DNA of 64,000 bases, from positions 40,732 to 104,731 of the forward strand of contig CAXWPJ010000007.1 of assembly GCA_963664115.2 (NCBI GenBank), in the 5' to 3' direction. This stretch comes from Terriglobia bacterium. GTDB taxonomy: Bacteria; Acidobacteriota; Terriglobia; 20CM-2-55-15. Of the stretch, positions 14,585 through 61,632 are shown piece by piece. Every line of letters begins with the position of its first letter. Position 1 is the stretch's first letter. The notes below the pieces were generated by a model. That model was not told where the DNA came from and made no database searches. It worked only from the letters and a program-made list of their open reading frames with translations. The position numbers were made by a program, and so were the translations under genes.

Positions 14585-14663
14585 AGCGTGGCAACCTATG
14601 GCAACCAGAGGCGAGAAAACGAAAAAGGCCGCCACTTTGGCAGCCTAACTTCTTTGTTTTCAA

Positions 14664-36154: not shown

Positions 36155-36210
36155 ACGGAGGGGCGGGGCCCGATCCAGAAATTAGTCTTCTGAATCAGAA
36201 ATTGACGGCG

Positions 36211-36416
36211 TAAGATTTCGCTCGGTCGTTCAATCGGACATCCTGTCCGAACGACCGGCGAGCCTCGCAATCATCCTGATTGCGAGGTCTATTGGGGATG
36301 AAGAAATGTTGATTCAGTTCTTCGAACGAACCCGCAGCGAGGAACGCTGCGGGTAAACGGCTTTCATTGTAAAGAGGCGGTAGCCGAGGCGTTCAGAATA
36401 AGAAGATGCTTGGATC
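36211..36416. ncRNA. Structured dispersed element, copy A
   Basis: Homologous to 43924-44119 (inverted) and 60770-61000; several hairpins with compensatory changes. Confidence 0.75.
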
Positions 36417-36461
36417 TGATGCGGACGAAGCTGTTAGAAACCTGAATTCTAACCGAGCGTA

Positions 36462-37619
36462 CTAGTGGTCCCCGTCAAACAGACTGTACCTTATTGAGGC
36501 TCTTGCGAGCGCGTTGGACTTTTTCAAGGATGTCGGAAGCCTTAGCGGTCCAGATAAACGGCTTGGGATTCTGGTTATGGCCGGCGACGTAGTTTTCCAC
36601 GGCCCTTATTAACTCCGGAACAGAGCAGAATACCCCACGCCGAAGCCGTTGTTCAGAAAGATCCCGGAAGAAGCGTTCAACCATGTTGAGCCAGGATGCG
36701 CTGGTTGGCGTGAAGTGCACATGAAATCGTGAGTTGCGCTTGAGCCAGTTGACGACTTTCTGGTGTTTGTGCGTCGCATAGTTGTCGCAGATGATATGGA
36801 TCTGCTTGTCTTTGGGCACGGAGCGTTTGATTGTATTGAGAAACCGAATCCACTCCTGATGCCGATGCTTGGGCATGCAGGTCCCAATCACTGAACCGTC
36901 CAGGGTATTGAGCGCGGCGAACAACGTGGTCGTTCCATTGCGCTTGTAATCGTGGGTCATGGTGCCACCGCGCCCCTTCTTCAAAGGTAACCCGGGTTGC
37001 GTACGATCCAGGGCCTGCATCTGGCTCTTCTCATCGCAGGATAAGACGATGGCGTTTTCCGGCGGACTCAGATACAGACCGACCACATCCTCCAGCTTCT
37101 CGGCAAATTGTTTGTCGTTGGACAGTTTGAATGTGCGTGACAGATGTGGCTTCAGTCCATGGGCCCGCCAAATCCTTCCGACTGTCGCATCGCTGACTCC
37201 GGTCGCCGCCGCCATCAAAGACCGGCTCCAATGCGTCGCGTTGGGGGGCTTCTCTTCAATCGTCTTCTTCACGATCCGGGCCCGCTTCCGGGCGCTGATC
37301 GAGGGAATTCGTCCACTTCGGTGCGCGTCCTTTTCGATCCCTGCCAGTCCATGTCGCACAAAACGATCGCGCCATCGCCCGGCCTTCTGGCGCGTAATCT
37401 TCAGCCGGGCTGCGATATCCTGATTATTCAGCCCTTCGTCGGCCAGTAAGATAATTCGGGATCGTTCTGCCAACCGTACCGTCGTACTCCGGCTTCGACT
37501 CAGTCGTTTCAATTCCTTGCGCTGTTCGTTATCCAATTCAATCGTTGCTGCTTTTCTCATACCAACATTTGACGTTGGAAAAGCAATTACGTTACATTAA
37601 TTTCGACGGGCTACACTAG
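36462..37619. mobile_element. IS630 family insertion sequence
   Basis: CTAG at both ends; imperfect inverted repeats ctagtggtccccgtcaaa / ttcgacgggctacactag. Confidence 0.9.
36475..37560 (-). CDS. IS630 family transposase
   Basis: HTH region, CDEKSQ.QAL, HDYKRNGTT, DNYATHK, TPTSASWLN.VE.FF. Confidence 0.96.
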   Translation of the reverse strand: MRKAATIELDNEQRKELKRLSRSRSTTVRLAERSRIILLADEGLNNQDIAARLKITRQKAGRWRDRFVRHGLAGIEKDAHRSGRIPSISARKRARIVKKTIEEKPPNATHWSRSLMAAATGVSDATVGRIWRAHGLKPHLSRTFKLSNDKQFAEKLEDVVGLYLSPPENAIVLSCDEKSQMQALDRTQPGLPLKKGRGGTMTHDYKRNGTTTLFAALNTLDGSVIGTCMPKHRHQEWIRFLNTIKRSVPKDKQIHIICDNYATHKHQKVVNWLKRNSRFHVHFTPTSASWLNMVERFFRDLSEQRLRRGVFCSVPELIRAVENYVAGHNQNPKPFIWTAKASDILEKVQRARKSLNKVQSV

Positions 37620-38200
37620 GTGGCAGGCTGACGCTTGCTTTCAGGCAGAACGGAATCGTCGTTGAACGGACGGATGCCGCGCCGGGAGTAGGTCGGCTCT
37701 GAAGTGTTCCGGCAGTCAAAATAGTCCCAGCGATTCGTGTGATCGGACACGAACACCTCGTCGAAAACCAGGAAGAGCATCGGCAGAATAAACGGCTTAC
37801 GAACACCATGGATCTTAAAAACAGCATTGAAGCCCTCTCTCTTAAGAGCACTCCACTGCTCTCTTTCATCGTCGCTAAACGCAGTGATGTTGTCGTTGAG
37901 CAGGTCACGGAAGAAGCGAAGCCTGTAGCCATCGTGAAGATGGTTCGTCGCGATAATCATTTTGTCGTCTTGATGAAAGAGTATGGCTTTCGTGGATCCG
38001 CGATATGAGAAGAGCTGGACCAGGGCGATGGCAATCGTCGCCAGGGCGACGAGGCCGATTACGATAAAGAGAAACTGCCCGATCTGGTTTCTTTGGGAGA
38101 AGCCGCGCGCAACGCTCACCAGGACCGTCAGAGCCAGCAGCACGCCCAGCATGTTGCCAGTCCGCATCCGGTTGATCTCTCGACGGGAAAAAAACACCAT
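37616..38200 (-). CDS. Hypothetical two-TM membrane protein
   Basis: RBS AGGAGG; two TMs then a soluble domain; stop codon coincides with the IS630 CTAG. Confidence 0.6.
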   Translation of the reverse strand: MVFFSRREINRMRTGNMLGVLLALTVLVSVARGFSQRNQIGQFLFIVIGLVALATIAIALVQLFSYRGSTKAILFHQDDKMIIATNHLHDGYRLRFFRDLLNDNITAFSDDEREQWSALKREGFNAVFKIHGVRKPFILPMLFLVFDEVFVSDHTNRWDYFDCRNTSEPTYSRRGIRPFNDDSVLPESKRQPAT

Positions 38201-42488: not shown

Positions 42489-42622
42489 CGGCGTCCTCCG
42501 TGAGCTCGCGCAAGCGCATCTTTCCAGCTTTAGGGGGCGGATACTTGATAAAGGCGTGCTTTGATCCTGACACCTCCATTTTAAGGGTCCGTCTCCTCGG
42601 GGAGGGATTGTACTCTATCCCT

Positions 42623-43848
42623 ATGCCCTCGATCTCTATGACGAGTATTGCCGCGGAAGTGGTGGCTCTGTTGTGGCTGGGGGCGGGGGTTTACCTGGGT
42701 TTGGGATGGCTGCGCTTCGAAGGACTTCTCCGCGCCAGCGCTCGGCCCGGTATCGCGGGAGGGCCCTTGCCATCCGTATCGCTTGTGATAGCCGCGCGCA
42801 ACGAAGCGGACAGCATCGGCGACACTCTCGACCGGCTCTCCCGCGTGGATTATCCAGAGCTTGAAATCGTGGTGGTCAACGATCGGTCACGAGATGGCAC
42901 GGGTCAGATTGCGTCCGAATACATCCGCACGCTAGGGGGACTCAAGGTGGTGGATATCGAAACGCTACCCCCGGAATGGCTCGGAAAGACGCATGCGCTC
43001 CATGAAGGCTCCAAACAGAGCTCTGGTGAGTGGCTGTGTTTTATTGATGCCGACGTGCCATCCCGTGTCAGGCAACCTCTGGATCGCTTCGCTCGAACCG
43101 GACTGCCTCAGACGTGCTCGAACCGGACTGCCTCAGACGTGCGTGGCCGGCCCGGATGAGGCGTCTGGACCATCTCTGCCTGTTTCCTGCGCTTCGAACC
43201 CACGGACTACTCGAAAGCGCGTTCGTCATGACGTTCGGGTTCTATTTCGGGGTGTACATGCAGCCCTGGAAGGCAAAAGATCCGAGGTCTAAGAAATTTT
43301 GTGGTGTCGGTGCCTTCAACCTGATCCGGCGGAACGCTTATGAAGCGATCGGTGGACACGAACGATTGCGTATGGAGGTCGCAGACGATATCAAGCTGGG
43401 CAAGCTGGTGAAGCAGCACGGCTACCGACAGGATGCGATGGACTCCGACGGTCGGGTTCATCTGCGGTGGCAGAAGGGCGGGGTCGGTGCATACCTCCGG
43501 GGTATCGAAAAGAACGCTTTCGCGGGGGTGGATTACAGTCTCGTGCGCGTGGCGTTGGGCAGCGTGGCAATCATAATGATGAGCATCTTTCCTTTCGTTG
43601 CGGTGACCGTGGGCGATTTCACCGCACGCTCAGCTGGGGCAGTGGCTCTGGCCGTCATCGCACTCGCTTACGGACCCCTGGGCCGCCCACTCAACAAATC
43701 ACGCCTGTACTTTGTGACGCACCCGCTGGGAGCAGGAATTCTTCTGTCCGGGTTGTGGATTTCTACCGTAAAAACGCTCTGGCGTGGCACCGTCGTCTGG
43801 CGGGGAACAGCCTATCCGCTTCCATTGTTGAAAAAATATCTCGTCTGA
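42623..43848 (+). pseudogene. GT2 glycosyltransferase interrupted after the DxD motif
   Basis: IAARNEA, VNDRS.DGT, WLGK, FIDADV; a frame change at ~43058-43150, then G...LIRR.AY..IGGH, DDI.LG, WRG. Confidence 0.8.
43091..43140 (+). repeat. 25-bp tandem duplication
   Basis: gctcgaaccggactgcctcagacgt twice. Confidence 0.95.
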
Positions 43849-43923
43849 GGTATCTCGTGTTCTTTCGCTAATGGGATGGTGGTGCCTCAGTTTAAAAAGA
43901 CAGGTCCGTTCCTAGCTGGAGCG

Positions 43924-44119
43924 AATCATCTTTTTGCACTGACGCCTCGGCTGCTGCCTCCTCAATTTAAAAGCCGTCCATCCGCAGCGGGGGACCGCTG
44001 CGGATTTTCCGGGGCCTGCTTCAACAGGTCGGTTTGCCCCATAAGCCTCTCCATCAGGATGATGGAGAGGGACGCCGGTCGTTCGGCCAGGATGGCCGTT
44101 TGAACGACCGAGCGAAGTC
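43924..44119. ncRNA. Structured dispersed element, copy C (inverted relative to A and B)
   Basis: cctctccatcaggatgatggagagg, gccggtcgttc...gaacgaccgagcgaa and acgcctcggc blocks shared with the other copies. Confidence 0.75.
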
Positions 44120-44255
44120 CCCCCTAGACGGAGACTGAATTTCAAGCCGGGGCACTACTTCTAGGATGACTTTCTGAACGCAAGGGAAGGCCATCGAAGC
44201 TCGAGAGACGGACAGATGCCGGCCGGGATTCCTCCGGCCGGCATCTGGGACGCGT

Positions 44256-60681: not shown

Positions 60682-60769
60682 GACAATCATCGCGGACCTG
60701 GAAGGCCATCGGAGTTCGAAAGCGAACTTCTAGCCCCACACGAATATCGTGAGCGAAAGGCGCGGGATA

Positions 60770-61000
60770 TAAGATTTCGCTCGGTCGTTCTTACGGCCGA
60801 CCGTCTCTGTCGCACCATGTGCGTTGGGCCGAACGACCGGCGACCCTCTCCATCATCCTGATGGAGAGGCTTATTGGGATCAACGGAATGTGAAGCAGTT
60901 CCCCGAAAAATAACCCGCACTGGCTCGGCAGTGCGGGTGGACGGCTTTCAAATTGAAGAGGCGGTCGCCGAGGCGTCTAGAGTAAGAAGATGATTGGATC
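60770..61000. ncRNA. Structured dispersed element, copy B
   Basis: Same orientation as copy A; first hairpin extended by an inserted sub-hairpin. Confidence 0.75.
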
Positions 61001-61044
61001 GGCCAGCACGAAACTCTTAAGCGGCAAACCTCCCCCCCAACCCA

Positions 61045-61632
61045 CTACTCCCAACTCTCCGCCTTCAAGTAAGTCCCGAATACAAAATCCCACACCGGGG
61101 AGGTCACACCAAAACACTTCGTCTCGTCGACGAAGTGATGCCGAAAGTGGCGGCTTCGATGGCCGCTGAGACCCAAGGTGGACCCGCTGGTGTGGACACG
61201 GTAATGCACCCATTCATAGTAGAGAAAGCCCGCCCACACGCCCATCACCAGGCCTGTGGTCGTCGTGGTATTTCCGGTCGCCCCATAGGTGAGTCCCAGA
61301 ATGATTACCGAAAGCGGCAGTGTGGTTCGGGCCCGGGCCAGGATGCATTTCGGATCCCGGGGCCGTCCGTGATGGACGAGATGGAATCCGGAAACGAAGT
61401 TGGCCAGGCCCCGGCTCTGGGGTTTCCAGTGAAAAAAGAAGCGATGGAGCCCGTATTCGATCAGCGTCCAGAGAAAGATCCCGAAAGGAATCATGATGAC
61501 GTAGTCCGCCACCCAACGCTCCGGTTCACGCGATTGGCCAAGATAAATCAGGAGCAACGACGCGAACGGATAGATCCAGAAAGAGCTGAAACGCATCAGG
61601 CGAGCTCCTGAACCATCAACTGGGTTCTTCAA
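61045..61632 (-). CDS. Fatty acid hydroxylase/sterol desaturase family protein
   Basis: EY.LHR..FH, H..HH, YEW.HY..H, H..HH, FGVTSP.WD; start possibly 61596. Confidence 0.9.
   Translation of the reverse strand: MKNPVDGSGARLMRFSSFWIYPFASLLLIYLGQSREPERWVADYVIMIPFGIFLWTLIEYGLHRFFFHWKPQSRGLANFVSGFHLVHHGRPRDPKCILARARTTLPLSVIILGLTYGATGNTTTTTGLVMGVWAGFLYYEWVHYRVHTSGSTLGLSGHRSRHFRHHFVDETKCFGVTSPVWDFVFGTYLKAESWE

Follow-up and report, generated by a model that had tools for sequence, protein, structure and literature searches.

The window analysed here is a 64,000-nucleotide stretch from a Terriglobia bacterium with a genome (G000) of 4.89 Mb, and it contains three copies of a multi-hairpin repeat, designated A, B and C (Table 1). 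For comparison we used four other species of the same genus, g1 (G001 to G004), the family f1, and a second, sister genus, g3. A sequence-only reading of the window had described three diverged copies with ordered blocks and compensatory changes in their stems. The copies, the blocks and the cited stem changes were all found at the positions that it gave, and each copy does lie between convergent genes. Its intervals correspond to real repeats but cover the interior of the element only, with each contained in a larger element of 278-306 bp. Conservation reaches ~30 nt further to the left and ~55 nt further to the right, into decayed inverted repeats that begin with TA, and the statement that terminal inverted repeats (TIRs) are lacking was therefore wrong. 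Compared with a 22-nt IS630-type end, the two TIRs carry 5 and 9 mismatches in copy A and 10 and 9 in copy C, while those of copy B differ from an IS1-type end at 4/21 and 3/17 positions.

Table 1 Features of the three repeat copies and their surroundings, in window coordinates.
Feature	Position	Strand	Remarks
Copy A, whole element, 282 bp, TA to TA, decayed IS630-type ends	36183..36464	+	Same-site copy in G002
Copy A, structured core	36211..36397	+	Covariance model (CM) match 185 bits
Copy A, hairpins	H1 36218-36261; H2 36263-36287; wobble-rich H3; H4 36330-36354; then H5 and tail	+	
Resident IS630 element, transposase 36475-37560	36463..37618	-	NF033545, 267 bits
TAG stop of gene 37616-38200(-)	37616..37618	-	Original target of copy A, prior to IS630 insertion
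Copy B, whole element, 278 bp, IS1-family-type ends	43880..44157	-	Same-site copy in G002
Copy B, structured core	43937..44122	-	CM match 177.5 bits
Right-end remnant of an earlier copy, directly beside the left end of copy C	60722..60741	+	Better preserved in G002 orthologue
Copy C, whole element, 306 bp, long-H1 variant	60742..61047	+	G004 syntenic site carries different sequence
Copy C, structured core	60770..60981	+	CM match 177.6 bits

The earlier claim that no cognate transposase accompanies the repeats needs qualification: an IS630 transposase gene adjoins copy A, but its element has different ends and is not the cognate partner. This resident IS630 inserted into the CTAG at the right end of copy A and is absent from the G002 orthologue. 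In G000 as a whole, the right ends of 4 among 33 resident IS630 elements lie in the CTAG that closes the hairpin element on the right, all in the same orientation (C2:407382, C7:77194, C9:547803 and C9:830972). The TAG at the right end of copy C is the stop codon of a fatty-acid hydroxylase gene (61045-61632, minus strand), and before the IS630 insertion the terminal TAG of copy A was likewise a gene stop. The remnant beside copy C probably reflects a nested insertion at the element's own TA, and the H4 loop of copy A has the opposite orientation to that of most copies. In G002, A, B and C each have a counterpart at the same site. Where syntenic sites could be recovered in other species, they gave no profile match for A, B or C; a CM match is absent at the copy A site in G004 and G003, and the copy B site in G004 holds an ends-only remnant. 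DNA contigs from four other runs, which span the flanking DNA and extend into copies A and B, showed no decisive polymorphism. The contigs of these runs skip positions 43058-43116 and add 3 bases nearby, in a region (42500-43848) where a glycosyltransferase is split over two ORFs, and the window assembly or strain therefore probably has a local error or insertion there.

From their TIRs, TA target and empty sites, we conclude with high confidence that the repeats are copies of a small, non-coding, non-autonomous transposon (MITE), which bears out the earlier suggestion of a non-autonomous element. Intact copies are non-coding, multi-copy and 263-305 bp long (n = 29), and the MITE size class is 70-300 bp. 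The same IS630-type end is found on both sides in 46 of 76 classified G002 copies (0-15 mismatches of 44) and, in decayed form, in 11 of 42 G000 copies (9-17 mismatches of 44). This shared end, TAGTGTCCTGAGTCAGAAGTTCG, terminates a complete 1165-bp IS630 element from another family of the phylum (L115, 282 bits to NF033545), and a near-identical end terminates IS630 element L128 (269 bits); the match to autonomous IS630 elements applies to copies A and C, with copy B having IS1-type ends. L128 and L129, from viral-collection contigs, represent a 1446-bp IS630 element with a small extra ORF that belongs to no NCBIfam family. The target is the TA within CTAG: of the 29 intact copies, 14 have C-TA at the left end and 17 have TA-G at the right end, and the terminal TAG closes an ORF of at least 100 codons in 24 of 37 copies. 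Comparison with empty sites confirmed the insertions: for the 79 sampled G002 sites, the corresponding G000 locus is empty in 38 cases, occupied in 19 and without synteny in 22, and the empty sites inspected have a single TAG. At several shared sites (L038, L051, L065, L189 and L229) the element lies in opposite orientations in G000 and G002. CTAG is rare in G000, with 2910 occurrences observed and ~18,400 expected, a six-fold under-representation. The genome is also very IS-rich, with families of ~79, 60, 34 and 23 near-identical copies, several of which target CTAG.

The cognate transposase was not found: among 39 tblastn matches in G000, none of those read has the end of the hairpin element, and none of 10 IS630 loci of sister species at which ends were inspected has a matching one. 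The resident IS630, with 49% amino-acid identity to L115 and different ends, was rejected as a partner, and IS701 and IS4, considered for the likeness of their ends, were dropped after the exact end was found on IS630 elements. Copy B and several further copies have a second end type, which in G000 is also the end of IS1-family elements; a third, present in a few copies, bounds IS1182-family elements. Mixed ends occur, and all three end types begin at TA. These three shells were probably acquired when elements inserted into one another's CTAG and their cores then recombined. Both the ends and the TA target mark the element as a DDE (IS630-type) MITE, and mobilisation through a folded RNA or ssDNA, which the earlier reading had entertained, is unsupported as the main route. 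An IS1-family element at L252 (G000 C6:129403-132523) and at C4:64360-67480 carries passenger genes, one for an HTH plus IrrE/M78 peptidase protein. G000 also has two other structured MITE families of ~300 bp, one at C1:35948-36246 and C2:1029157-1029455 and the other at L262 (C8:47869-48171), and a G002 copy of the first adjoins the hairpin element at a shared CTAG (L045).

As had been predicted from the density of copies in the window, the genome holds many more, ~55-70 in G000. A profile of the three copies gave 73 nhmmer matches at E ≤ 1e-3, 41 of them near full length, and the CM count for G000 is 58 of 75 scored candidates. By BLAST, the element is present in 5/5 genomes of the genus and 0/26 other relatives. 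Counts of a core 16-mer are 134 in G002, 30 in G003, 15 in G004 and 14 in G001, with none for the reversed control; the G002 copy number is thus at least 134 pattern matches, and 79 copies were sampled. The CM matched in 9/35 family genomes and in 0/149 other genomes of the phylum under stricter filters, and a pattern for the 3' tail was found in 7/401 genomes of the class. In the second genus, G440 has 62 matches and G441 has 37. In GTDB, a scan with the core returned 12 stretches: three Terriglobia MAGs account for 10 of them, and the other 2 lie on 4-kb contigs, possibly misbinned, that are assigned to other phyla. Two core patterns gave 0 stretches in viral contigs. The element is confined to a narrow uncultured Acidobacteria lineage. 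In g3, a module of H4 plus tail occurs in tandem and inverted arrays without g1-type TIRs, and H1-H2 occurs separately. In 32 metagenome stretches the H4 stem varies freely and the tail is kept, the tail being the search pattern. A tail module without the hairpin lies in sense orientation between rpsC and rplP on two metagenome contigs (L342 1153-1260; L353), and in the sister genus a 5' module closely precedes a tRNA gene (L277, G441 C16:9461-9633). The family was not recognised in the earlier reading, and Rfam 15 likewise gave no family match, with only tRNAs at gathering score in the window and nothing credible by E-value on copy C, 15 loci and 12 further loci. No description of the element family was found in the literature searched, which lay mostly outside subscription journals, and the MITE catalogue in the supplements of PMC11602168 could list it.

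Copy A folds better than 200 shuffled sequences on both strands (z = -6.3 for plus and -6.2 for minus). The alignment comprises 155 copies, with partial ones (CM/HMM span under model positions 55-225, or <100 bits) excluded, and alignment A5 comprises 68 short-H1 copies. The stem covariation proposed from three copies holds in A5, where pairing is kept in 94.5% of cells and both partners have changed in 24 of the 50 named pairs (mean of 11.9 after shuffling), counts that kinship between copies inflates. None of 500 shuffles reaches any of five pairing measures, and slid controls are 29-46% paired. A long-range pair that closes H5, 198:235, covaries across ~35 nt (GC in 61 copies, AT in 41). 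Unpaired and bulged positions are 93-99% conserved and are interleaved with variable ones at the scale of single bases. The covarying pairs support simple hairpins, and HDV-like and hammerhead ribozymes, the kink-turn and attC, considered by consensus features and checked through Rfam alone, were rejected on this ground. The loop is inverted in 3/155 H2 and 6/155 H4 hairpins, copy A's H4 included. Template switching is described, in the available part of PMC8794818, as a source of both compensatory changes and inverted loops, and because the inverted loops carry this signature some of the covariation may be mutational in origin. Wobble pairing (G-T over A-C) favours the plus strand at 13 of 16 informative H3/P5/H5 pairs, a biased count in that these helices were chosen on the plus strand, and at 8 of 9 informative H4 pairs. 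The preference turns to the minus strand in H2 (1 vs 8) and disappears in H1 (7 vs 5), and the core helices that were counted first have similar numbers of G-T and A-C (163 vs 180). The plus strand folds lower in 59/68 copies. An intrinsic terminator has a U tract behind a GC hairpin. On the plus strand a U tract follows the four hairpins in 0, 4, 0 and 0 of 155 copies; on the minus strand, one follows H4 in 28/42 G000 and 16/79 G002 copies.

Over the 155 copies, per-column conservation is 55-70% in the TIRs and 90-99% in the core stems. At the 12 same-orientation sites shared by G000 and G002, which are the only same-site pairs usable, identity is 325/336 (97%) for H1, 283/312 for H2, 289/477 for the linker and 312/550 (57%) for the TIRs, and fourfold sites of flanking genes at shared sites are identical at 14657/21666 positions (68%). 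The corresponding JC distances are 0.03 for H1, 0.10 for H2, 0.56 for the linker, 0.65 for the TIRs and 0.42 for fourfold sites, with H1 changing roughly 13-fold slower than synonymous sites. Across 69 copies, core mismatch is steady at 2-3% while TIR mismatch goes from 7% to 34% (rho 0.01), the core columns having been chosen for being conserved. G003 has 30 core matches, no intact TIR and no DDE_3 gene. The ends of the element diverge like neutral DNA and keep site-specific ancestry: partner permutation shows same-site ends to be more alike than chance (p = 0.0005), and in the 7 pairs without alternative end types 29/44 non-consensus TIR bases are shared, versus 16.3 by permutation (p = 0.0003). 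The interior of the same 7 pairs gave no signal of shared ancestry (p = 0.12; linker p = 0.85-0.92), nor did the variable linker and H4-H5 columns under partner permutation (p = 0.80 and 0.43), and variable columns of H1-H2 gave a weak same-site signal (p = 0.016). Modules are mostly in linkage equilibrium, with most module pairs unlinked, and in 11 of the 12 pairs the interior from G002 obtains a higher score for likeness to G002 than the one from G000. Because site-specific ancestry is lost in the interior only, the interior appears to have been overwritten by other copies. In old insertions the ends are retained, whereas the interior takes on the character of the species, a pattern of concerted evolution that gene conversion would explain. 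A ten-fold difference in rate between neighbouring bases is more than conversion can produce by itself, and we therefore infer selection on the fold. Furthermore, the core is found within IS630-, IS1- and IS1182-type ends, and its halves as free arrays in g3, so the fold is likely selected independently of transposition. These sequence comparisons make selection on the fold at resident copies a likely proposition, in agreement with the earlier view that the structure is under selection.

Convergent gaps hold 30 of the 55 G000 copies, versus 485/2937 of all gaps longer than 50 nt. The convergent share is 343/1679 for intergenic CTAG sites, 12/73, 9/54 and 3/18 for three young IS families, and 10/31 for a fourth, the resident IS630. 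Insertion at stop codons alone explains much of this location at 3' ends. In tandem gaps, the plus strand of the element is co-oriented with the genes in 33/37 cases in G002, 13/21 in G000 and 55/69 pooled, with genes called by a crude script of our own. This bias comes mainly from G002 (33 vs 4), which also has an overall plus-strand bias and in which, as elsewhere, copies are not independent; G000 alone gives 13 vs 8 (p = 0.38). No replication-strand bias is visible in G000, where GC skew is weak.

Taken together, we lean towards an explanation that we rate at a little better than an even chance: a decayed IS630-type MITE at gene ends, with a recombined and selected fold that is predicted to serve as an mRNA 3'-end structure. 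A MITE of ~280 bp would have inserted at the TA in CTAG, mostly at gene ends, moved in trans by an IS630 enzyme no longer present. Its ends would have decayed, and recombination between copies probably overwrote the hairpin interior again and again, with selection likely holding its single-stranded fold. Carried in 3' UTR or intercistronic RNA, the plus-strand stem-loops would protect upstream mRNA against 3'-5' decay or guide how it is processed. This REP/ERIC-like job, as a predicted mRNA-decay shield or processing signal, is drawn by analogy and is tentative, with a probability that we put well short of even. A broader and rather doubtful reading is that the core is a domesticated or selfish structured RNA module: a self-maintaining, recombining intragenomic population that reaches stop codons inside MITE shells belonging to three unrelated transposase families, persists after these shells are lost, is renewed by conversion and can form free arrays. 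If true, it would be a second stably maintained bacterial sequence population besides REPINs, and one without a dedicated transposase, and the module could act at the 3' ends of dozens of mRNAs or serve as a scattered CsrA sink. The authors of PMC8049555 know of no stably maintained intragenomic sequence population other than REPINs, according to the available part of that paper.

The fold could also be selected for its own copying, as an ssDNA or RNA form or as a conversion donor, rather than for host benefit, with the core riding any shell and refreshing old copies. The occurrence of the same core in three types of end, the replaced interiors at old sites, the tandem and inverted g3 arrays of the 3' module without those ends, and the G004 site with ends only are all consistent with such a core. 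We nevertheless consider it unlikely, as no dedicated enzyme was found: adjacency to an HUH/RAYT gene, raised in the sequence-only reading, was seen for none of the 7 Y1/HUH genes of 5 genomes, and no mobile-element family emerged from the 4 scanned among the ORFs that recur around 61 module loci. DDE transposition proceeds without a single-stranded step, which also counts against self-copying, and co-orientation with transcription fits an RNA role. In the absence of any selection, the element would be a dead MITE, with stems repaired by replication template switching and an interior homogenised by neutral gene conversion. The inverted loops are a template-switch signature in the available part of PMC8794818, conversion is evident, and the G-T/A-C balance in the first helix set points the same way. 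This account is already disfavoured, and we regard it as improbable, because unpaired and bulged positions are conserved among variable neighbours, pair 198:235 covaries over its long span, the variable linker sits between conserved blocks, and the core is recognisable across a genus in which flanking genes are 69-92% identical, and in a second genus.

A minus-strand transcript could instead act as a sponge, with GGA in three hairpin loops like CsrB/Rsm titrating one of two CsrA homologues. TCC, the minus-strand GGA, is present in 87/101 short H1, 129/155 H2 and 114/155 H4 loops, and 122/155 H2 loops agree with the consensus for CsrB repeats in the available part of PMC7652899. All genomes with CM matches encode CsrA, and two g3 genomes without matches lack it; however, CsrA is family-wide (16/18 other f1 genomes), with one copy in a flagellin-type/FliW cluster. 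The evidence from wobble and orientation is mostly for the plus strand, the stems are 10-17 bp long compared with ≤4 pairs in most selected binders (PMC7652899, in part), a promoter-like site was not found in 3 copies, and identity of the H4 TCC between same-site copies is only 25/35, all of which makes a sponge very improbable. Besides the FliW-linked copy, most of the family has a second CsrA-like gene that stands alone; at L003 1402-1629 (G000 C9:507406-507534) it matches only profile positions 1-43. The repeats could also be REPs/REPINs mobilised by an HUH tyrosine transposase, or ncRNA genes of an independent family. The BIME-like arrays in g3 and the strong covariation would suit either, but the TIR/TA architecture and empty sites, the lack of a flanked Y1 gene among the seven in 5 genomes and the lack of an Rfam match render both extremely improbable. 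The REP tag GTAG/CGTC is absent before H4 in g1, while some g3 modules have, by eye, a GTAG that overlaps the stem, and dimers and arrays are present in g3 and rare in g1.

Bacterial MITEs are usually conserved at their ends and free inside. The hairpin MITE family reverses this pattern, with its interior kept and its ends decayed, and comparison of the same sites in sister species makes it possible to tell apart how the ends decay neutrally, how the interior is converted and how the fold is constrained at specific positions. If, as in our preferred reading of a selected mRNA 3'-end structure, the core is selected by the host, it would be a second case besides REPINs and would offer an example of domesticated MITEs that is open to testing; a self-selected core would instead point to an unknown copying step.

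The closest comparison within the phylum is with 164-bp MITEs of other Acidobacteriota, in which the same IS630-type terminal repeat surrounds a conserved folded interior. These elements (L099, L100, L106, L118 and L123) have divergent, similarly folded interiors and come from three families of the phylum. Homology to their core was rejected: model R1 misses them and model R2, with a seed of only 7 sequences, misses the hairpin element, so that by two-way model tests the two cores appear not to be homologous. Model R2 also matches the two other ~300 bp MITE families of G000 weakly. RUP of Streptococcus pneumoniae, with IS630-Spn1, is likewise a non-coding intergenic MITE with a TA target and TIRs that match an IS630 (PMC2229807). 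RUP is described without further structural signature in the available part of that source, whereas the interior of the hairpin MITE is far better kept than its ends; moreover, unlike RUP, the hairpin MITE has its core in three end types, and a matching IS630 was not found in the genome. CsrB, RsmY and RsmZ share with the minus strand of the element their repeated GGA hairpin loops (PMC7652899, in part), but the element is dispersed in a mobile shell, has long stable stems and shows strand evidence that points mostly to the other strand. Its existence as a long-lived intragenomic population at gene 3' ends and in convergent gaps, with arrays and inverted pairs in g3, resembles REP/REPIN/BIME as described in the parts available of PMC3733652 and PMC8049555, from which it differs in having no RAYT association, a 190-nt core and DDE-type ends. 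ERIC/IRU and Correia/NEMIS are structured MITEs beside genes that are co-transcribed and have proposed orientation-dependent effects on mRNA decay via RNase E or III (PMC2229807 and PMC3733652, in part). The hairpin MITE resembles them as a structured MITE beside genes, with co-transcription predicted only, and sequence likeness to them was checked through Rfam alone. In the stem-loops of other repeats the two ends pair with each other, as described in the available part of PMC2229807, whereas in the hairpin MITE a multi-hairpin interior outlasts the pairing of the ends.
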